This document shows, piece after piece, positions 4,025 to 22,634 of a stretch of 64,000 nt of DNA (positions are counted from its first letter, which is position 1; each line of letters opens with the position of its first letter). Source of the stretch: Gammaproteobacteria bacterium (GTDB lineage Bacteria > Pseudomonadota > Gammaproteobacteria > SZUA-229); assembly GCA_041572275.1 (NCBI GenBank), contig JBFFSQ010000001.1:8238-72237 (forward strand), in the 5' to 3' direction. The translations under genes and the position numbers were made by a program. The notes beneath the pieces were generated by a model that had not been told where the DNA came from, did not search any database, and was given only the letters and a program-made list of their open reading frames with translations.

Positions 4025-5047
4025 TTATAAATAGTTTTTTATCAAAATCTCAGCAATTTGAACACTGTTTAATGCTGCACCCTTGCGCACATTATCTGCT
4101 ACCACCCACAGATTCAGGCCATTTTCATAAGAAATATCTTCACGAATCCGACCAACATAGGTGGGATCATGTGTAGCCCCTTCGGTCACTGCAGTGGGAT
4201 ACCCACCATCCTTACGTTCATCCAAAACCTCAATCCCTGGCGATTTAGATAACAGAGCATGACACTCCTCGGCTGTCATTTTTTTACGGGTTTCAATATG
4301 AACAGCCTCAGAATGACCATAGAAGACAGGAACACGAACAGCAGTTGGATTTACCAGAATGCTGTCATCTTCCATAATTTTCTTGGTCTCCCAGACCATT
4401 TTCATTTCTTCCTTGGTATAGCCGTTATCCATAAACACATCGATATGGGGCAATACATTAAAAGCAATCTGCTTTGGATAAACTTCGCATTCAATCGGTT
4501 TTCCATTCAGCAGTCGTGCCGTTTGTGTCGCCAACTCCTCAATCGCTTCCTTACCGGTACCGGAAACAGCCTGATAGGTACAGACATTAATACGGGAAAT
4601 ACCTACTGCATCATGTATCGGTTTCAAAGCTACCAGCATCTGGATAGTTGAACAGTTTGGATTGGCGATAATGCCCTGATTGGTGTAATTGGCAATTGCA
4701 TGGGGATTCACTTCCGGCACTACTAGTGGAATATCGTCCACATAACGGAACTCAGATGTGTTATCGATTACCACACAACCTGCAGCAGCAGCTTTTGGCG
4801 CGAATTCTTTAGAAATGGAACCACCTGCAGAAAATAATCCAATTTGTACTTTTGAGAAATCAAAATCAGCTAGATTCTCCACCGTTAACATCTGATTACC
4901 GAATTCAACTTTCTTGCCCACAGAACGCTCGGATGCCAATGGATATACTTTACCTACTGGAAACTTGCGCTCAGCCAGGATTGACAGCATGGTTTCACCG
5001 ACAGCGCCCGTGGCACCCACGACTGCTACATCATATGTTTTACTCAT
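4025..5047 (-). CDS. asd: Aspartate-semialdehyde dehydrogenase (short, non-enterobacterial type)
   Basis: 340 aa beginning MSKTYDVAVVGATGAVGETMLSIL with an Asd active-site region. It sits between fimV and leuB. Confidence 0.93.
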   Translation of the reverse strand: MSKTYDVAVVGATGAVGETMLSILAERKFPVGKVYPLASERSVGKKVEFGNQMLTVENLADFDFSKVQIGLFSAGGSISKEFAPKAAAAGCVVIDNTSEFRYVDDIPLVVPEVNPHAIANYTNQGIIANPNCSTIQMLVALKPIHDAVGISRINVCTYQAVSGTGKEAIEELATQTARLLNGKPIECEVYPKQIAFNVLPHIDVFMDNGYTKEEMKMVWETKKIMEDDSILVNPTAVRVPVFYGHSEAVHIETRKKMTAEECHALLSKSPGIEVLDERKDGGYPTAVTEGATHDPTYVGRIREDISYENGLNLWVVADNVRKGAALNSVQIAEILIKNYL

Positions 5048-5134: not shown

Positions 5135-6211
5135 TTAAGCCTTTAATGCCTCAACCACAGCATCACCCATGGCTGCAGTACCTACTTCAGTACATCCTTC
5201 CGACATAATATCCGGAGTACGCAGGCCCCGATCCAGAACCTTGCCTACCGCATCTTCAATACGTTGTGCGACTTCAGCATTATCCAGGCTATAGCGCAAC
5301 ATCATCGCCACTGACAATATGGTCGCCAGAGGATTAGCAACACCCTTACCTGCTATATCCGGTGCTGAGCCGTGAATGGGCTCATACATGCCTTTACCTT
5401 CGGCATTTAACGATGCTGAAGGCAGCATGCCAATTGACCCGGTTAACATGGCCGCCGCATCAGACAGAATGTCACCAAACATATTCTTGGTCACCATGAC
5501 ATCAAACTGCTTGGGCCATTTCACCAGCTGCATGGCTGCATTATCCACATACATATGACTGAGTTTAACTTCAGGATAATCCTTGGCCACACGCTCAACC
5601 ACTTCACGCCATAACTCAGAAACTTCCAGCACATTGGCCTTATCAACTGAGCACACGTGTTTATTTCGTTTCATGGCAATATCAAAGGCCGAACGAGCAA
5701 TGCGCTCGACTTCTGACTCAGCATATACCAGTGTGTTGAAACCAACGCGCTCACCATTACGTTCTTCTATACCCCGGGGTTGCCCAAAATAAATACCGCC
5801 GGTCAGCTCACGCACAATCATAATATCCAGACCCGCTACAATCTCTGGCTTCAATGATGAAGCATCAGCCAATTGCGGGTATAAAATAGCCGGACGTAGA
5901 TTAGAGAATAGTGTCAGTTCTGAGCGCAAACCCAGCAGACCTTTTTCAGGTCGCTTCTCACGGGGGAGCGATTCATACTGAGGACCACCCACTGCCCCCA
6001 GTAAAATAGCATCCGCCTGTTTACATAAGTTTAAAGTCGCCTCTGGCAGAGGATCACCCGCCGCATCATATCCAGCACCTCCCACTGGTGCTTCTTCGAG
6101 CTCGACATCCAGAGCACCTTCGGCTTGCAGGAAGTTGATCACTTTAACGGCTTCGGCAACAATCTCAGGACCAATACCATCACCAGGCAAAATTGCAATT
6201 TTTTGTGTCAT
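5135..6211 (-). CDS. leuB: 3-isopropylmalate dehydrogenase
   Basis: 358 aa beginning [18 protein letters not shown], with isocitrate/isopropylmalate dehydrogenase signature residues. Confidence 0.95.
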
Positions 6212-6225
6212 CTTTAAAACCTTGT

Positions 6226-6861
6226 CTAAAACAACCAGGGTGCTGATTGTTTACGTTGTTCTTCGTACGCGTGGATAGCATCTGCATGTTGCAGAGTTAA
6301 GCCAATATCATCGAGGCCATTTAACAAACAGTGCTTACGGAATTCATCCACTTCAAACGCAATTTCTTTGCCTTCTTCTGTCACAATAATCTGCTGTTCC
6401 AGATCAATGGTCAGCTGATAGCCTTTTCTTGCGTTAATCAAATTAAACAGTTCATCAACCGTTTGTGCCGGCAATGGAATAGGCAGTAAACCGTTTTTGA
6501 AACTGTTATTAAAAAAGATATCGGCAAAACTGGGCGCAATCACGGCTCGAAAGCCAAAATCAGTTAGTGCCCATACCGCATGTTCTCGAGATGAACCGCA
6601 ACCAAAATTTTCGCGTGCAATCAGAATTGTGGCCTGATCATACGGCGACTGATTGAGGACAAAGTCTTCATTCTTGCGACGCGTGCTGTTATCCATACCT
6701 GGCTCACCCGGATCGAGATAACGCCAGTCATCAAAAGCATTTGGTCCAAAACCACTACGTTTGATGGATTTTAAATACTGTTTCGGAATGATGGCATCGG
6801 TATCGACATTGGTTCGATCCAATGGTGCCACGATTCCACTAACCCGGGTAAATTTATCCAT
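6226..6861 (-). CDS. leuD: 3-isopropylmalate dehydratase small subunit
   Basis: 211 aa beginning [31 protein letters not shown], the classic LeuD N-terminus. Confidence 0.95.
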
Positions 6862-6863
6862 TA

Positions 6864-7001
6864 CTATTTCTCTGCTTCTTTACTGGTTTCTTCAATCGAC
6901 TTGCCCAGGCTTTGAATATCTTTACCTAATCCTTCGAAAGTGGCGCACCCCGCAACTGATACGAAACCCAGAATCAGCATTAAAATAAATAGTTTTTTCA
7001 T
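6864..7001 (-). CDS. Entericidin (EcnA/EcnB)-family small lipoprotein, 45 aa
   Basis: This ORF is not in the ORF track; I hand-translated it as [45 protein letters not shown]. It has a lipobox (VAGC) and the entericidin core G-[FL]-G-[EK]-D-I-x-x-L-G-x-S-I. An SD-like gagga lies 9 nt upstream. Its stop TAG is followed by TAATG, the leuD start. Confidence 0.7.
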
Positions 7002-7012
7002 TGCCCTTTTCC

Positions 7013-8416
7013 TCAAAAGTTTCTGACATCAACAAAATGGCCGGCAATGGCCGCCGCTGCAGCCATGGCAGGACTCACCAGATGGGTACGCCCACCCTGG
7101 CCCTGACGGCCTTCAAAGTTCCGGTTCGAAGTTGAAGCACATCGCTCACCCGGCTCCAAACGATCCGCATTCATGGCCAAACACATAGAACAGCCCGGTT
7201 CACGCCATTCAAAACCGGCATCGGTAAATACTTTGTCCAGTCCTTCCTGCTCGGCCTGCTGCTTGATCAAACCGGAGCCCGGTACAACCATCGCCAACTT
7301 GATATTATCTGCCACTTTACGGCCCTTGATCACTTTAGCCGCTTCCTGTAAATCTTCAAGACGTGAATTGGTACAGGATCCAATGAATACCTTATCCACC
7401 TGGATTTCGGCAATTGGCATACCGGCTTCAATACCCATGTATTGCAATGCTTTCTGCATGCCCCCGGCTTTGACCTCATCCGCCTCATCACCTGGATTCG
7501 GTACTACATCATCCACGGCCACCACCATTTCTGGTGATGTGCCCCAGGTTACCTGTGGCTTGATGCTCGCTGCATCCAGTGTAATCTCAGTATCAAACAC
7601 TGCATCGTCATCACTGACCAGTTCGCGCCAGGCCAATACCGCCTGTTCCCAATGCGCTTCGCTGGGTGCATAGGGACGCCCCTTCACATATTCAATAGTG
7701 GTGTCATCAACCGCAACCAGACCAACACGCGCACCCGCTTCAATCGCCATGTTGCAGATGGTCATACGGCCATCCATGGATAAATCCCGGATCGCGCTGC
7801 CGGCAAATTCCATCGCAAAACCGGTACCACCCGCCGTGCCAATCTCACCAATAACGGCCAGCACGATATCTTTAGCGGTTACACCCTGACCCAACTGACC
7901 TTCAACATTGACACGCATGTTCTTCATTTTTTTCTGTAATAAACACTGAGTAGCCAGCACATGCTCAACTTCTGAGGTGCCGATACCAAATGCCATAGCA
8001 CCAAACGCACCATGAGTCGCAGTATGGGAGTCACCACAGACCAGAGTCATTCCGGGTAGGGTTGCACCCTGCTCTGGACCAATAACATGAACGATCCCCT
8101 GGCGAATATCATTCATGGTAAATTCAGTAATCCCAAATTCCTGACAGTTCTTATCCAGCGTTTCCACCTGGATGCGGGACACTGGATCCTGAATACCCTG
8201 ATCACGATCAGTAGTGGGCACATTATGATCGGGTACCGCCAGCGCGGTTTCACTACGCCAGGGCTGACGACCTGCCATGCGCAAGCCCTCAAATGCCTGC
8301 GGTGAAGTCACTTCATGCACCAGATGACGATCGATATACAATAATGCAGTGCCATCATCTTCAGAGCGCACTACATGGGCATCAAACAATTTATCGTAAA
8401 GGGTTTTACCTGCCAT
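7013..8416 (-). CDS. leuC: 3-isopropylmalate dehydratase large subunit
   Basis: 467 aa beginning [16 protein letters not shown]; aconitase-family with Fe-S cysteines (GSCTNSR). Confidence 0.95.
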
Positions 8417-8519: not shown

Positions 8520-9413
8520 ATGGACATACAGAATCTCCAGACCTTCATCAGCGTCAGCGAAACTCGCTCCTTTTCCAAAGCTGCAGAAAAACTATTCATT
8601 ACCCAGCCCGCTGTGAGCAAACGTGTATCCTCGCTGGAACAAGCACTCAATGCACGACTATTTGACCGTATCGGTAAACATGTTCAGCTCACCGAGGCCG
8701 GTGAAGCCCTGTTACCCCGCGCTCGCAACATTCTCGCAGAACTGGCGGAAAGCCGCCGAGTTATTAACGACCTGAGTGGCAAGGTTGCCGGTGCTCTACG
8801 CCTCGGTACCAGTCACCATATCGGTTTACACCGCTTGCCACCGGTATTGCGTGCCTATACCGCAGAATACCCAAATGTTGATCTGGATATCCAGTTTATG
8901 GATTCAGAAGACGCCTGTGATGCCGTCATGAAAGGTGAGCTGGAACTGGCCATTGCTACCTTACCGGAACAGGCATTTGACAATCTGACCACAAAAATTA
9001 TCTGGCATGACCCCTTGAGCGTCATGACCAGCAAACACCACGCACTGGCACAAATGCAAGACATCGATCTGCAACAGCTGGTCCAGCATGCCGCCATACT
9101 ACCGTCACAGAGCACATTTACCCGCGCTCTGCTTGAGCAGGCATTGGGCCTGAATACACGAAAATTGAAAATCGCCATGGAAACCAATTATCTGGAGACA
9201 ATAAAAATGATGGTTTCTATCGGTATTGGCTGGAGTGTGCTCCCTCTGTCCATGCTCTCACCAGACATCAGGAGCCTTCACATCAATGACATCCATATGG
9301 AACGACAACTGGGCGTTGTCCATCACTCTGAGCGCACCCTGTCAAATGCAGCTAAAAAGCTACTCCAACTACTTGATCAGCACAGTGATCTATCCAAACA
9401 CACTCGATCATGA
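8520..9413 (+). CDS. LysR-family transcriptional regulator, divergent from leuC
   Basis: N-terminal HTH (LQTFISVSETRSFSKAAEKLFITQPAVSKRVSSLEQAL) plus a LysR substrate-binding domain. A divergent leuC/LysR pair also occurs in Pseudomonas. Confidence 0.85.
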   Translation: MDIQNLQTFISVSETRSFSKAAEKLFITQPAVSKRVSSLEQALNARLFDRIGKHVQLTEAGEALLPRARNILAELAESRRVINDLSGKVAGALRLGTSHHIGLHRLPPVLRAYTAEYPNVDLDIQFMDSEDACDAVMKGELELAIATLPEQAFDNLTTKIIWHDPLSVMTSKHHALAQMQDIDLQQLVQHAAILPSQSTFTRALLEQALGLNTRKLKIAMETNYLETIKMMVSIGIGWSVLPLSMLSPDIRSLHINDIHMERQLGVVHHSERTLSNAAKKLLQLLDQHSDLSKHTRS

Positions 9414-15883: not shown

Positions 15884-16873
15884 TTAACTACGTTGAAAAG
15901 AAAAAGCCAGGACTTCAGAAATAAGGGTTTTCGACAGCAACACCATTAGCAGACGATCGACGCCAATCGCCACACCTGAACAATCTGGCAGGCCAGCCCC
16001 TAATGCTGTGAGCATATATTCATCTATGGTTACCGGTTCCATACCCCGCTCAATCCGCTGCTGATTTTCCTGCTCAAACCTGGATCGCTGCTCCTCTGCA
16101 TCGGTTAACTCATAAAAGCCATTGGCCAGCTCCAGCTCACCCCAGAACAATTCAAAGCGATGCGCCACACGCGGATCATCTTCACTCACCCGCGCCAGTG
16201 CAGCCTGTGAAGCCGGATAATCGAAAACGAAAGTAAATCCCTGTTTAACAAAACTCGGCGCCACTCCCTGGGTCATCAACCAGTCCAGCCACATATCGCG
16301 ATCCAGCTCGTCCATACCCACAGGTATTTCAATACCCCGCTGTTGTGCGACCGCTTTGAGCTCACCCGCACTGGCTGCAAGGGGATCTATGTCCAATGCC
16401 TCAACAAATGCCTGCTGATAAGACAGCCGCCGGGGTATCTGTCCACTGATCGGTACTCCCAATTTACCAGACAAATAATTGAGTAATGCCTCCATATCAT
16501 CCATCAGCAGATGATGATCCATACCCAGTCGATACCACTCCAGCATGCTAAATTCTGGATTATGATATCGGCCCAGCTCATCATCACGAAACACCCTGCA
16601 CAGCTGAAAAATATCGCCGCTGCCGGATGCCAGCAGGCGCTTCATGAAAAACTCAGGAGATGTCTGTAGGTAAAGACGATCACTGAGGTATTGCGTAGAA
16701 AAACTCTGCAAATGAGGATCAGTAATAGTTGCCCGCGATAACACCGGCGTTTCCACTTCAAGAACATCCTGTTCAGCAAAAAAAGCCCGGATACCTTGCA
16801 GTAGCCGGGCCCTGAATTGCAACACCTCGAATGAGGCAGACGGTTGCCAATCAGTCTTTGACTCGGGAGACAT
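15884..16873 (-). CDS. epmA: Elongation factor P--(R)-beta-lysine ligase EpmA (PoxA/YjeA)
   Basis: Class II aaRS-like core ([28 protein letters not shown]...[46 protein letters not shown]). The start [14 protein letters not shown] aligns with E. coli EpmA MSETASWQPSAS. Confidence 0.85.
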
Positions 16874-17420
16874 ATTCACCACTACGGGTGTCAACTTTCA
16901 GCACTTCACCCTGTTCGATAAATAAAGGCACTTTAACGACGGCACCGGATTCCAGCGTAGCCGGCTTGGTTCCACCCTGAGCCGTATCACCCTTTAAGCC
17001 AGGGTCGGTCTCAGTCACAGTGAGCTCGACAAAATTGGGCGGTGATACTAACAACGGCTCACCATTCCACAGGGTAACTGTGCATAACTCCTGGCCTTTC
17101 AACCACTTAGCAGCATCTGTCATAGCCGCTTCACCCGCACCCACCTGCTCATAGGTGTTCGGATCCATGAAATACCAGAATTCACCGTCGTTGTAGGAAA
17201 ATTCCATATCTACATCCATCACATCCGCAGCTTCAGCTGATTCACCAGATTTGAAGGTCCGCTCAATAACACGACCGGTTTTCAGATTGCGCAGTTTTAC
17301 CCGATTAAAGGCCTGCCCCTTACCAGGCTTGACCAGTTCATTTTCAATGATGTTATAGGGGTCACCATCTAAAAGTAATTTAAGTCCGCCACGAAATTCA
17401 TTTGTACTGTATGATGCCAT
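16851..17420 (-). CDS. efp: Elongation factor P
   Basis: 189 aa beginning [22 protein letters not shown] and ending ...[11 protein letters not shown], near-identical in layout to E. coli EF-P. The true start (17420) is internal to the longer ORF in the track. The 3' end overlaps the epmA start by 23 nt. Confidence 0.93.
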
Positions 17421-17491
17421 CTGTTTTACCTTAGCCTGTCGGGCTTTACAGAATTTAAAAACAGCGCATATGATACGCGGTAAACCCTGAA

Positions 17492-18508
17492 ATGCCAAAA
17501 CCAGCAATCAATAACCTTCAGCACATCCCTGGCTGGCAACAACAACTGGCCCAGGCAGTTACCGATCCAGCAGAACTTCTAGAGCTGCTGCAGATTGAGC
17601 CAGAGCAATTCCCTGGTTTTTCCGAAGCCTGTCAGCATTTCTCACTCAAGGTCCCCCGTGACTATATTGCCAAAATGACCGTCGGCGATATTAACGACCC
17701 CCTGTTAAAACAGGTGATGGCAACGGCTCTGGAGCTAGAGCCAGCAACAGGCTATCACGCCGACCCAACGGGTGACCTCGATGCGATGCCAGTTCCGGGC
17801 CTGCTCCATAAATACCAGGGCCGTGCACTACTGATCACCACTGGCGCATGCGCCATTCACTGCCGCTATTGCTTCAGGCGTCACTTCCCTTATGCTGATA
17901 ACCACTCATCACACAACAACTGGCATCAGGCCATCCAGTACCTGGAACAACACACGGACATTAGCGAAATTATTCTCAGTGGTGGTGACCCGCTCGTTTT
18001 GTCAGATCACAAGCTCTCTGAACTGATCCATCAACTCAGCAATATTCCACATATTAGACGCCTTCGAATTCATAGCCGCTTACCCATTGTCTTACCTGAG
18101 CGCATCACCAATGAGCTCTGCCACATACTTTCACAGAATCGTTTGCGTACTAGCCTGGTTATCCACGCTAATCATGCACAGGAAATTACTGAAGCAGAAA
18201 CCCAGGTGCTGAACCGACTCAACGACGTCGGTATCACGCTGCTCAACCAAAGCGTCCTCCTGAAAGATATAAATGACTCATATCAAACACTTGTAGACCT
18301 CAGTGAGCGACTATATGAAGCTCGCGTCTTACCGTATTACCTACATGCTCTCGACCCGGTACAAGGTGCGGCACATTTTGACGTTAAGGAAAGCCATGCC
18401 ATGATGCTCATCAAGCAAATGCGTGCCGTACTACCAGGTTACCTGGTACCTCGATTAGTACGTGAAATACCCGGCAAAAACAGCAAAATTTCCGTAAATG
18501 AGCTATAA
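17492..18508 (+). CDS. epmB: EF-P beta-lysylation protein EpmB (lysine 2,3-aminomutase-like radical SAM, YjeK)
   Basis: Radical-SAM CxxxCxxC ([13 protein letters not shown]) in a KamA-family context. It is divergent from efp, as in E. coli. Confidence 0.9.
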
Positions 18509-18685: not shown

Positions 18686-20512
18686 ATGAAACTGAATATT
18701 CCAGAACAAGTTGAGCCGGGTAAGGATGATTTCCCTAATCATCCCCGCAAAGTCAAAAAATGGCTTACCGAATTAAAACAGGCCAATATGGGTGACTATA
18801 CCCGTCAGATTTATAATGGTCTGATGCAGCTGAATCGCCAGTCGATGCCCCCTAAATACCGACTCGAAAACCTGGAACAATTACGTGAACCCACACGTCA
18901 TATTTTTAGTCAACTGCATAAACATTTTGTAAACCGAACGCTGCCATTACCGGAAAAAAGCCTGAAAATAATCACTCTGAACCAGGCCGTACTGAATGAA
19001 ATTGCCACCGGTTATAAAATTCTTATTTTTGAAGCTGCCAACGATCTAAACAAGGTCGATAACAAAATCCTTCTGGTCGCCTGCGAACGGGCCCTGCATT
19101 ACTATGCAGAATACCTGCTCAAGTCCAGTCAAATTTACGCCAATATTCCGAATGCCCTGTGGTGGGATATTCACCGTATTTATGCTTATGCAGAAAGCAA
19201 AAAACTGCATTCAAAAAAAATCAAAGATTCAGAACACTCGCTTAAATCTGTTTCTGTGGAAGATTACTATAAGCTTATTCTGCTATTTTCTCTGTCACGA
19301 CCCAATGCATTACGCCAAAGCGATACTGAACGCGTATTCATGGCTATGCCTGAATGGATTAAATACACCAACCTAACCAGTCATCCAGTAGCAAACAAAC
19401 TCAATCAATACTTCTGCAGCAAACTGGACAGCGACATACCGCCTCATTGCCTGAGTAATGACGAAATTAAGTCCGGCAGCAATATTCGTGCACTTGAAAC
19501 AGGTAAATTGCTTGAGTATCTAAAAAAACAAATTACTCAGAATGTTGATTTAACTAATGCCACAACCATAGACAATCAGATTTCGCAGGAAACCCTGCGC
19601 ATGCTGATAACCACCTGGAGCCTGTGCACTAAACGCCGCTTTTCAAGAGCTGATAAAGCCTCTGATATAAAAGTAGCTATTGGACTGACATCAATCCATA
19701 ATGCGATCATTGATCAACAAAAAGCACCTGAACCGAAGCGTAGCAAAAGACCTCGTTCAACATTTTCACTGGAATCCATATCGGATAACGAACGAGCCAA
19801 AAAAGATATTTTTGCACAACAGGAACCAACCTTTTTAATCACTCATCCCGACATGAAAGCCAGTGAGAGTTCATCAGCAGGCGCATGGGATATGGTGGCA
19901 AAAGGTCGTGCCCTGACCGAAAGCTATGCCAGAGAACTCCAGGCACAGGATGATGAACTTGGCGAATTAAACAAAGAAGCACCTGATCTTCACTGGAAAA
20001 TCAGTAATGTAAGTGCAGGCGGCTACTGCTTACAGTGGAATTCTCAAACAACATCGAGAGCACAGGTTGGTGAACTTATTGGTATCCGGGAAAAAGAACC
20101 AGACCATAGCTATCAATGGCGGGTCGGTGTTATTCGCTGGATGCAATACTCACGTGAAAATGGCCTTGAAATTGGTGTTCAGGTACTTTCACCTAAAGTC
20201 GTGACATGCTCCGTTCGGCGTCTTGAACGCAAGAATGAGGAGCCATTTAACTGTCTTTTACTGCCCGGCATCAAACCGCTACAACAACCAGCTACATTAC
20301 TACTCCCGGCATATGCCTTTAAAAAAGGCGGCATGCTACAACTCCATGCCTATGAACGTGACATGGAAATTCAACTGGGCACAATACGAGAACATACAGG
20401 ATCATTTACACAATTTCAGTTTATACAAACTGATAACAAGGACGCACCTGAAGAAAATGACAAAAAACAGAGTTCCTCTGATGATTTCGACTCAATCTGG
20501 TCATCCCTTTAA
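18686..20512 (+). CDS. Large hypothetical protein (608 aa) with a C-terminal PilZ-like domain (NxSxGG motif); the N-terminal ~450 aa is unrecognised
   Basis: The C-terminal ~130 aa contain ...WKISNVSAGGYCLQW..., matching the PilZ (D/N)xSxGG motif, followed by an alternating hydrophobic beta-pattern. A possible RxxxR-type element (KRRFSRADK) lies about 130 aa upstream. No SD precedes the annotated ATG, so the start is uncertain. It lies 31 nt upstream of the FimX-like gene on the same strand. Confidence 0.55.
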   Translation: MKLNIPEQVEPGKDDFPNHPRKVKKWLTELKQANMGDYTRQIYNGLMQLNRQSMPPKYRLENLEQLREPTRHIFSQLHKHFVNRTLPLPEKSLKIITLNQAVLNEIATGYKILIFEAANDLNKVDNKILLVACERALHYYAEYLLKSSQIYANIPNALWWDIHRIYAYAESKKLHSKKIKDSEHSLKSVSVEDYYKLILLFSLSRPNALRQSDTERVFMAMPEWIKYTNLTSHPVANKLNQYFCSKLDSDIPPHCLSNDEIKSGSNIRALETGKLLEYLKKQITQNVDLTNATTIDNQISQETLRMLITTWSLCTKRRFSRADKASDIKVAIGLTSIHNAIIDQQKAPEPKRSKRPRSTFSLESISDNERAKKDIFAQQEPTFLITHPDMKASESSSAGAWDMVAKGRALTESYARELQAQDDELGELNKEAPDLHWKISNVSAGGYCLQWNSQTTSRAQVGELIGIREKEPDHSYQWRVGVIRWMQYSRENGLEIGVQVLSPKVVTCSVRRLERKNEEPFNCLLLPGIKPLQQPATLLLPAYAFKKGGMLQLHAYERDMEIQLGTIREHTGSFTQFQFIQTDNKDAPEENDKKQSSSDDFDSIWSSL

Positions 20513-20543: not shown

Positions 20544-22634
20544 GTGGCAACAGAAAATAAAGTTAATATTTTTATTATTGATGACTCCTTTAACAATGAA
20601 GAAAAGGTTGTAAAAATCATGCGCGCCGGTGGATATGCAGCCCACACTACTCGCGTTGAAGATGACGAAGACCTGATTGAGGCACTCAAAAAGAAACAAC
20701 CGGACATTCTACTCTATGCAGTGGGCATGGAACTGATCACACTGGAACAAACCATCGCCTGTCTTCAGGAACACGTATCCGAACCAATCCCGGTAATAGC
20801 AGTCAACCGCGCTAACCATGAAACTGATGTGGTTACAGCCATGCGTGCAGGCGCCAAGGATCTCAGTGCCTACAGCAACCCTACACATCTTGAACTTGTC
20901 ATCAAACGCGAAATCGATGCGCATAGAAGCATCAAAAAACTGTTTCAGGTTGAAATGTCCAACAAGGAAACAGAAAGACGCTGCGAGGCACTACTTGATT
21001 CTTCACGTGATGCTATAGCCTATATACACGAAGGAATGCATGTATATAGTAATCAGTCATATTTAGATCTATTTGGCTTTAATGAATTTGAAGAACTTGA
21101 AGGCATGCCCATCCTCGACATGGTTGGCATGAACGACCGTGATAGCTTTAAAACGTTTTTGCGTGAACATTGCAAAGCGGGCGCCTGTAATGCCAGCAAC
21201 CTCGAACTCAACCTGAGAAACCCGGACAGCACTGAGTTTAAAGGTATCATGGAGTTTTCGCCGGCCAGTATCGAAGGTGAACCTTGTATTCAAATTATCA
21301 TTCGGAACCAGGTTGACAATAAAGAACTCGAAAAACAAATTGCCCTGATGGGACAAAAAGATTCTGTTACCGGCCTATATAACCGTCAGTTTTATCTTGA
21401 CTCACTTACAAAAACCGTTGATTCAGCCAAACAGGGCAAACTCAAGGCATGTGCTTTGATGATCCAGCTGGATAACTACAAAGAAATCAAACAAAGTATG
21501 GGTGTTATTGTCAGCGACCAGTTTCTGAATGAAATTTCTCGCCAATTTGAAAACAGTATTGCTAAAAACGACGTCCTTGCACACTTTGACGGCAGTATAT
21601 TCTCTATCATTGCCATGGACCAAACAGCTGCGTCTATAGAGAACTATGCAAAAAAAATCAGCAAAAACTGTGACGACTTCATTGCTAACATAAAAGGTCA
21701 ATCGATCAATTCGACCTGCAAGATTGGCATCAGCATAATCGATGAGAACGCCCCAGACACAGATGAAATACTGCTACGTGCAGAACGTGCCATACAGGAA
21801 AGCAAAACCTCAGGTGCAGATAGTATCGTTGTATATCGACCCAAAGAAGGTGAGCTTACACAAAAAGAAATTGATGCACAGATCGTCAATGACCTGAAGG
21901 ATGCTGTCACTAACAATCGATTCTTACTGTATTTCCAGCCTGTCATCAGTTTACATGGTGACCCTGACGAGCGTTATGAGGTGTTTGTCCGCATGAAAGA
22001 TAAAGATAATAATATCCTCATGCCTTCAGATTTTCTGCCAGCTGCTGAACGCACCGGCATGTCAATGACCATAGATCGCTGGGTATTGTTAAACACTATT
22101 ACCACCCTGACAAAATTATGGAAACAGGGTAAACGCACAATTTTCTTTGTCCGGCTCTCAAGCACGTCATTGAAAGACAGCAACCTGATGACCTGGCTAA
22201 AAGAACAACTTAAAAAATTCAATGTTCCTAAAGGCAGTATAGTCTTCCAGGTCAAAGAAAGCGCCGCAGTTACCAGTCTTAAGTACACTGCTGAACTAGC
22301 CAAGCAACTGAAACAACTCAACTGTGGTTTTGCCCTGGATGACTTTGGCAAAGGCAACAACCCATTTGAGATACTTAAACACATACCGGTTGATTATCTG
22401 AAACTTGAGCGCTCATTTATGGAAAACATATCTGAAAGCAGCGAGAACCAGGATGCTATCAAGAAAATCACAGAAACTGCCATGGAAATGAACAAGTTCA
22501 CAATTGCCCAATGCGTTGAAGACGCCACCAGTCTGTCGGTACTCTGGGGCATGGGAATTAATTTCATCCAGGGCAATTTCCTCCAGGAACCCACTCCAGA
22601 TCTGGATTACGACTTCAGTTCAATGACCGGTTAG
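20544..22634 (+). CDS. FimX-like c-di-GMP receptor: degenerate REC - PAS - degenerate GGDEF - degenerate EAL
   Basis: 696 aa. The REC has Tyr at the phospho-acceptor position (PDILLYAVG). A PAS-like block follows (~130-250). The GGDEF is replaced by DGSIF (HFDGSIFSII). The EAL is replaced by EVF (ERYEVFVRM), while other EAL binding-site motifs are kept (DDFGKG, KLERSF, QGNF). The architecture equals P. aeruginosa/Xanthomonas FimX. Confidence 0.8.
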   Translation: MATENKVNIFIIDDSFNNEEKVVKIMRAGGYAAHTTRVEDDEDLIEALKKKQPDILLYAVGMELITLEQTIACLQEHVSEPIPVIAVNRANHETDVVTAMRAGAKDLSAYSNPTHLELVIKREIDAHRSIKKLFQVEMSNKETERRCEALLDSSRDAIAYIHEGMHVYSNQSYLDLFGFNEFEELEGMPILDMVGMNDRDSFKTFLREHCKAGACNASNLELNLRNPDSTEFKGIMEFSPASIEGEPCIQIIIRNQVDNKELEKQIALMGQKDSVTGLYNRQFYLDSLTKTVDSAKQGKLKACALMIQLDNYKEIKQSMGVIVSDQFLNEISRQFENSIAKNDVLAHFDGSIFSIIAMDQTAASIENYAKKISKNCDDFIANIKGQSINSTCKIGISIIDENAPDTDEILLRAERAIQESKTSGADSIVVYRPKEGELTQKEIDAQIVNDLKDAVTNNRFLLYFQPVISLHGDPDERYEVFVRMKDKDNNILMPSDFLPAAERTGMSMTIDRWVLLNTITTLTKLWKQGKRTIFFVRLSSTSLKDSNLMTWLKEQLKKFNVPKGSIVFQVKESAAVTSLKYTAELAKQLKQLNCGFALDDFGKGNNPFEILKHIPVDYLKLERSFMENISESSENQDAIKKITETAMEMNKFTIAQCVEDATSLSVLWGMGINFIQGNFLQEPTPDLDYDFSSMTG

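Follow-up and report, generated by a model that had tools for sequence, protein, structure and literature searches.

A small open reading frame lying between leuC and leuD in a leucine biosynthesis operon raises two questions: whether it is a gene, and what an entericidin-like membrane lipopeptide would be doing at that position. The sequence-only reading had proposed such a frame in the window, by which we mean the whole 64,000-nt stretch of DNA analysed here. The genes surrounding the frame (hereafter ecn) were assigned as follows.

8520..9413, plus strand: LysR-family regulator, divergent, upstream of leuC (PF00126, PF03466)
7013..8416, minus strand: leuC, 3-isopropylmalate dehydratase large subunit, 467 aa, the operon's first gene (PF00330, 1.4e-181; TIGR00170, 795 bits, cut-off 560)
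6226..6861, minus strand: leuD, 3-isopropylmalate dehydratase small subunit, 211 aa (PF00694, 5.7e-38; TIGR00171, 278 bits, cut-off 116)
5135..6211, minus strand: leuB, 3-isopropylmalate dehydrogenase, the next operon gene (PF00180, 2e-142)
4025..5047, minus strand: asd, aspartate-semialdehyde dehydrogenase, downstream on the same strand (PF01118, PF02774)

Both neighbours of the frame scored far above the Pfam and NCBIfam cut-offs, which bears out its embedding between leuC and leuD. With fimV coming after asd, the layout is the usual gammaproteobacterial one, LysR / leuC-leuD-leuB-asd-fimV, plus one additional small cistron. The order through asd was repeated in four other loci (L001, L003, L005 and L091), two of which (L005 and L091) also kept the divergent LysR regulator. 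Within the small cistron and at its borders, the following features were recognized.

7010..7014, minus strand: Shine-Dalgarno (SD) sequence GAGGA of ecn, 9 nt ahead of the ATG and overlapping the TGA that ends leuC (sequence)
6864..7001, minus strand: ecn-like gene, 45 codons plus a TAG stop, entericidin-family pre-lipoprotein (PF08085 match)
6948..7001, minus strand: predicted signal peptide, residues 1-18, with an MKK n-region and a hydrophobic h-region, then A-G (PS51257 rule)
6945..6956, minus strand: lipobox V-A-G-C, with Cys19 (6947..6945) the predicted lipidated mature N-terminus (sequence, PS51257)
6867..6947, minus strand: predicted mature lipopeptide, 27 aa, Ala at +2, net charge -2, amphipathic (helical moment)
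6894..6932, minus strand: family core motif G-x-G-x-D-I ... G (alignment of spacer peptides)
6862..6863, minus strand: 2-nt junction TA between the ecn TAG and the leuD ATG at 6861..6859 (sequence)

As read from the sequence, leuC ends in ...VRNF with a TGA stop at 7015..7013, and an 11-nt gap, GGAAAAGGGCA, leads up to the ecn ATG at 7001..6999; the frame closes with TAG at 6866..6864 on the minus strand and yields a 45-aa product. The extent proposed earlier for the 45-codon ORF (6864-7001) proved exact, the strand being minus, as did its start 11 nt past the leuC stop, while its end, placed 1 nt before the leuD start, has to be corrected to an actual gap of 2 nt (TAG-TA-ATG). A good SD had also been claimed, and GAGGA indeed formed a predicted anti-SD duplex of -6.9 kcal/mol compared with a random median of -2.8, and was unchanged among relatives. 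The ORF had further been described as absent from the ORF track, which holds only until the length threshold is lowered: the ORF finder then listed it on the minus strand, starting at an upstream TTG and 50 aa long. This longer version overlaps the leuC stop and has no SD, and was rejected. Since GAGGA stands 9 nt upstream of the ATG and the homologues begin with M-K-K at this codon, the ATG and not the TTG was taken as the ecn start.

The product was placed in the entericidin family (Pfam PF08085 / COG5510) by several independent features. The PF08085 (Entericidin) profile matched it with 27.7 bits against a gathering threshold of 23.3 (E = 2.6e-6, profile positions 1-19 of 20), and pairwise BLASTP over essentially the full length gave 43% identity to Escherichia coli EcnA and 34% to EcnB, the positions invariant among the three peptides being the lipobox Cys followed by T, G, G and D. 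The mature motif of the window peptide is C-x-T-x-x-G-x-G-x-D-I, and when it was aligned with EcnA, EcnB and 30 spacer homologues, all invariant core columns, C-x-T-x-x-G-x-G-x-D-[IVL] ... G, were present. Among 31 spacer peptides plus E. coli EcnA/EcnB, G24, G26 and D28 were invariant and G33 nearly so, and the lipobox Cys was unchanged in 31/31 aligned spacer peptides. The 45-aa peptide satisfied PROSITE rule PS51257 with Cys at position 19 and K2/K3 within the first 7 residues, and the maximal helical hydrophobic moment of the mature part was 0.66, compared with 0.43 +/- 0.10 in 2000 shuffles (p = 0.0085). The PF08085 and PS51257 matches, together with the alignment to EcnA/EcnB, sustain the earlier description of an entericidin-like lipoprotein with lipobox VAGC. 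The NCBIfam model NF007319 (the EcnA equivalog, 'lipoprotein antitoxin entericidin A') gave 28.2 bits, far under its cut-off of 86, and the product is therefore a member of the entericidin family, not an EcnA orthologue. No relatives of the window peptide with solved structures were found.

EcnA and EcnB of E. coli are, like the window peptide, small (41 and 48 aa), carry a type-II signal peptide with a lipobox Cys, and share the mature motif C-x-T-x-x-G-x-G-x-D-I-x-x-x-G. They differ in having Asn at +2, where the window peptide has Ala, and the window peptide has an acidic, K/E-rich tail. The genetic setting differs as well, since E. coli carries a tandem A/B pair at a separate stress-regulated locus, whereas the window has a single gene inside leuCDB: an ecnAB-type tandem locus was not found, as the 64-kb window held one family match and its neighbours are leuC and leuD.

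A protein-database search with the 45-aa query returned only 3 relatives, owing to word-index limits on so short a query, and the survey was anchored on LeuD instead. One genome per species was scanned with a LeuD alignment, and the best 80 loci, 79 of them analysable, were taken; these belonged to Gamma- and Betaproteobacteria with LeuD identities of 64-78%. An ecn ORF encoding 39-52 aa with the lipobox and G-x-G-x-D was present in the leuC-leuD spacer in 29/79 loci, where the spacer measured 129-321 nt, whereas 43/79 had no spacer ORF and a leuC-leuD gap of -4 to 55 nt (median, 10). A comparison of related spacers had been put forward as a check by the sequence-only reading, and it favoured that reading: relatives keep both the ORF and its lipobox between leuC and leuD (29/79 species genomes), and spacers that lack the gene measure about 10 nt. 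PF08085 independently matched 30/31 spacer peptides, and PS51257 was satisfied in 31/33. The ecn-carrying relatives at 93%, 87% and 50% identity were all found in the order LysR/leuC-ecn-leuD-leuB-asd, and leuC-ecn-leuD was also present in L001-L006 and L091-L093; one cluster member bears the IMG name 'predicted small secreted protein', which is that of COG5510.

The distribution was read on a neighbour-joining tree of LeuC+LeuD. In Betaproteobacteria, ecn occurred in 25/38 loci and in most lineages (Comamonadaceae, Oxalobacteraceae, Burkholderia/Cupriavidus, Methylophilaceae, Sulfuricella, Rhodocyclaceae and Hydrogenophilales), and its losses were scattered and recent. Among the Gammaproteobacteria surveyed it was confined to three small uncultivated clades near Thiotrichales and sulfur oxidisers, the window's clade included, and L009, the window's nearest genome-level neighbour, was without it. 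The gamma copies carry the signature 'C[AE]T..GLG.DI', while those of Betaproteobacteria share the 'CNT' type with E. coli EcnA/EcnB; the beta mature peptides are mostly basic and those of the window's gamma clade, 'C[AE]T', acidic. The leu placement had been called unexpected, but it is so only from the viewpoint of E. coli K-12, where the leuC-leuD gap is 10 nt and ecnAB lies next to efp; about two thirds of the sampled Betaproteobacteria have it, and it has already been annotated.

Two of the losses could be followed closely. In Comamonas testosteroni, a REP-like palindromic element replaces ecn exactly, between flanks alignable to those of the ecn-carrying sister Comamonas Tr-654, and Cupriavidus AU9028 is without ecn while C. 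pauculus has it. As such losses are scattered and recent and leave leuCD intact, ecn is dispensable for a working leu operon and for leucine synthesis. No decayed ecn remnants were found in the long ORF-less spacers of L009, L044, L049 and L069, which hold AT-rich or REP-like palindromic DNA; the elements filling the spacers of L049 (2855-3000), L044 and L069 are GC-rich and REP-like.

Some spacers held other genes. In Saezia sanguinis (L030:1637-2759), a spacer of 1416 nt contained ecn and then a Cu/Zn superoxide dismutase with a signal peptide (PF00080, 1.7e-31), which is a second periplasmic/envelope gene inserted at the leuC-leuD junction. The spacers of Sideroxydans and Gallionella (L016:2699-3001 and L023:2729-3004) encoded a protein of 91-100 aa with a Sec-type, non-lipoprotein signal peptide; this Gallionellaceae protein has several KKGGEA / GIEKG repeats reminiscent of the C-terminal half of entericidins. 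In the gammaproteobacterial MAG HyVt-525 (L011:814-999), the spacer encoded a 61-aa lipoprotein with an LPAM_1 lipid-attachment match and without G-x-G-x-D. The L011 and L016/L023 proteins were considered as divergent entericidins and rejected, their family HMM E values being 0.17 and 9 and no Pfam model scoring above threshold; they count simply as further small exported proteins encoded at this site.

Selection on the reading frame was examined in the window and three close relatives. As the pairwise comparisons differed by 7-15 synonymous and 3-6 non-synonymous changes, dN/dS for ecn was 0.06-0.11, compared with 0.02-0.04 for leuD, and the 19-residue mature core was identical in the close relatives despite synonymous changes. 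These codon patterns indicated that ecn is under purifying selection. A family HMM was built from the spacer peptides and searched against 14,498 six-frame segments covering all loci and the window; its strong matches were confined to the coding strand of leuC-leuD spacers, and no match was found in the flanks of about 6 kb per locus. In the 64-kb window there was one copy, at 69 bits, the next best segment having E = 0.34. Recurrent weak minus-strand matches just past leuD were dismissed as an artefact, the antisense of the conserved LeuB N-terminus. The exact window peptide was already called in the NCBI MAG assemblies GCA_041549995.1 and GCA_041547755.1 and found in one Logan assembly, in the same context every time.

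We next consider how ecn is expressed. In a consensus scan, neither a promoter nor a terminator was found in the leuC-leuD interval, and the counts for the region equalled the shuffle expectation. The spacer RNA folded no better than shuffles (z = 0.19), and no Rfam match was found anywhere in the window. Because gaps of 11 and 2 nt leave no room for signals, co-transcription of ecn with leuC and leuD is effectively forced, in agreement with the obligatory co-transcription proposed earlier. Possible translational coupling had been proposed too, and in the window lineage it is plausible: leuD has no good SD of its own, anti-SD pairing in the upstream 20-mer being at the random level (-2.9 kcal/mol), and in the relative L001/L002 the ecn stop overlaps the leuD ATG by 1 nt (TAATG). 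With a junction of 2 nt and so weak an SD at leuD, ribosomes finishing ecn likely re-initiate at leuD in this lineage.

Tight coupling to leuD is not general to the leuC-ecn-leuD arrangement. Across loci, the ecn stop and the leuD ATG lay -4 to 103 nt apart (median, 13). The median SD energies over all loci were -6.95 kcal/mol for ecn, -6.4 for leuD without ecn and -3.75 for leuD with ecn, and the leuD SD was significantly weaker in ecn-carrying loci (p = 5e-5), as if ecn had taken over the leuD initiation site. Within Betaproteobacteria only, the medians were -3.7 (with ecn) and -4.15 (without), p = 0.054, and such an SD swap was rejected as phylogenetically confounded. With this marginal value and distances of up to 103 nt, a general coupling role is unproven and the contrast largely a phylogenetic confound.

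Taken together, the reading we prefer, with a probability of roughly 80%, is that ecn is a genuine, translated entericidin micro-lipoprotein gene forming an internal cistron of a leuC-ecn-leuD-leuB(-asd) transcript, whose product would most likely serve a general envelope, OMV or stress role. As judged from the gene's sequence and context, the product is most likely an outer-membrane lipopeptide riding on the leu transcript and, in the window lineage, translationally chained to LeuD. The predicted pre-protein would be exported by Sec; following established lipoprotein biology, Cys19 would be diacylglyceryl-modified by Lgt, the pre-protein cleaved by LspA and the new N-terminus acylated by Lnt, and Lol would carry the mature lipopeptide to the outer membrane. 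Outer-membrane sorting is predicted because Ala, not Asp, stands at +2, by the E. coli Lol rule, from which the window organism may depart. The 27-residue amphipathic peptide would then lie on or in the outer membrane. Translation would proceed from LeuC to Ecn to LeuD, the last by re-initiation, and, lying inside the leu transcript, ecn should be made whenever the leucine biosynthesis genes are induced. Its job would be that of other entericidin-family lipoproteins in the envelope, in OMVs or under stress, with no part in making leucine. Such a general role leaves unaccounted for the long retention at one operon junction in two classes.

Several known members bear on this reading. The leu-linked arrangement has been annotated since the Burkholderia cenocepacia J2315 genome, and the window ecn is one more member of a widespread, already annotated arrangement. 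BCAM0983A of that strain and the beta copies (from Acidovorax, Comamonas, Cupriavidus, Massilia, Methylotenera, Zoogloea and others) have the identical leuC-ecn-leuD-leuB architecture and encode lipoproteins of 39-52 aa with the same motif; the junctions, 11 and 2 nt in the window, are elsewhere up to 95 and 103 nt. In RNA from chronically infected rat lungs compared with culture, BCAM0983A, leuC1, leuD1 and leuB went up together, by 2.9-, 2.0-, 2.1- and 1.55-fold (PMC3417382), which is direct co-expression evidence for the homologous arrangement. A literature search combining entericidin with leuC/leuD/isopropylmalate/Burkholderia retrieved only this expression table (PMC3417382) and no account of the linkage. 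A copy on plasmid p2 of Cupriavidus pinatubonensis, between a leuC stub and leuD, carries the PGAP label 'entericidin A/B family lipoprotein'. This fragment (L089:3421-4268, NZ_CP080769.1) comprises the last 19 leuC codons, the annotated entericidin gene and leuD, broken into two frames; it adjoins TniB and IS3/IS30 transposases, and has evidently moved onto the plasmid as a leuC'-ecn-leuD unit.

Biochemical localisation data exist for one family member only, the EcnB-like Atu8019 of Agrobacterium tumefaciens: it is surface-exposed, exported on OMVs and mediates OMV docking (PMC7296081). Like the window gene, it encodes a single entericidin-family lipoprotein without an ecnA partner; unlike it, Atu8019 is 53 aa long, alphaproteobacterial and not leu-linked. 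An ecnA mutant of Xanthomonas citri formed less biofilm and was H2O2-sensitive (bioRxiv 10.1101/505081). On Ralstonia megaplasmids, an entericidin gene stands beside cls (cardiolipin synthase), independent of leu genes and with intergenic regions of its own; its product shares 68% identity with the leu-linked peptide of Cupriavidus pauculus and 44% with the window peptide. The entericidin family is therefore not intrinsically tied to leu genes.

A different possibility is that the peptide is tied to leucine biosynthesis, either as a translational coupler or spacer that fixes how much LeuD is made per LeuC, or as an envelope factor required specifically while the oxidant-/copper-labile Fe-S enzyme LeuCD is being induced. 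The same junction has been kept in Beta- and Gammaproteobacteria, and ecn was never found at the leuD-leuB junction or in the flanks. In the window, the leuD SD of -2.9 kcal/mol and the 2-nt gap make LeuD probably dependent on ecn translation, and, with every locus counted, the SD of ecn equals in strength that of leuD where ecn is missing. The superoxide dismutase in the Saezia spacer and the H2O2 sensitivity of the X. citri mutant would fit an oxidant-related factor. Against such a tie, about half of the surveyed genomes, E. coli included, have a leuC-leuD gap of about 10 nt without ecn, and C. testosteroni and Cupriavidus AU9028 have lost it recently and cleanly with leuCD intact. Moreover, the SD contrast is mostly phylogenetic, the ecn-leuD distance can reach 103 nt, near-identical paralogues (68%) exist outside leu operons, and selection acts on the mature peptide sequence, beyond keeping a frame open. 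We therefore consider it unlikely that retention at leuC-leuD in two classes reflects a real functional link, in which an envelope or periplasmic factor would be made in step with the Fe-S isopropylmalate isomerase or with leucine starvation and ecn translation would help set LeuD output; if it did, the co-inserted Saezia dismutase would be a second instance of the same logic.

The 'toxin-like' label given earlier to entericidins leads to a second alternative, that ecn encodes an EcnB-type bacteriolytic toxin which, placed in the leu operon, would damage membranes or set off programmed lysis when amino acids run short. For the E. coli pair, both the annotation and Bishop et al. 1998 (as cited in PMC7296081) make EcnB bacteriolytic and EcnA the antidote; the mature window peptide is amphipathic, and annotators named the leu-linked B. 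cenocepacia copy 'entericidin B-like bacteriolytic toxin' (PMC3417382). The window peptide is nevertheless closer to EcnA (43%) than to EcnB (34%), it has no partner antidote gene, being the one copy in 64 kb, and a toxin stoichiometric with a housekeeping biosynthetic operon would be costly in ordinary minimal-medium growth. In addition, Atu8019, the stand-alone homologue that has been studied, was not lytic in cells and did not disrupt liposomes (PMC7296081). Being single-copy, nearer EcnA and made whenever the leu operon is on, ecn is very improbable as a dedicated toxin, and the label finds no support.

That ecn is not a functional gene at all, but a chance spacer ORF, a leucine leader/attenuator peptide or a conserved RNA, is scarcely credible: the ORF is short, lying under default ORF-calling thresholds, and has 6 Leu codons, but these are scattered with none adjacent and no terminator follows ecn, the spacer fold (z = 0.19 versus shuffles) belongs to no Rfam family, the Pfam gathering score was passed with dN/dS of about 0.1, the family model matched 30/31 homologous spacer ORFs, and where the ORF is missing the spacer shrinks to about 10 nt.

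With ecn read as a genuine entericidin gene, nothing is overturned, as it was already called in public assemblies; the remaining interest lies in the deeply conserved linkage of an abundant, functionally obscure small-protein family to one leu-operon junction. Few small proteins are as widespread in Proteobacteria as the Entericidin/COG5510 lipopeptides, which have no agreed function; in a set of marine small proteins called with high confidence, COG5510 ranked first of the conserved domains (PMC12856327). The leu-embedded copies offer a defined, easily manipulated context induced by leucine limitation, and natural presence/absence pairs such as Comamonas Tr-654 and C. testosteroni; both could be used to find the family's function. 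For annotation, the case is a reminder that where leuC and leuD stand about 150 nt apart, the 'spacer' usually holds a gene.

Elsewhere in the window, epmA (-), efp (-) and epmB (+) form a cluster at 15884-18508. The E. coli ecnAB genes lie directly beside efp and epmB, and the 9-kb distance between ecn and the efp cluster in the window is probably a coincidence. A 608-aa ORF at 18686-20512 (+) had no Pfam match at E <= 1e-5 and stands just upstream of a response-regulator/PAS/GGDEF/EAL protein (20544-22634). Neither tRNA genes nor Rfam families were found across the 64-kb window. The other genes are housekeeping ones (aroC, psd, parC/parE, a RecB-like helicase, dsbC and xerD). The GC content falls to 0.40-0.43 near 20-28 kb, and the GC skew is below zero in all 4-kb bins of positions 1-64000 (-0.02 to -0.18).
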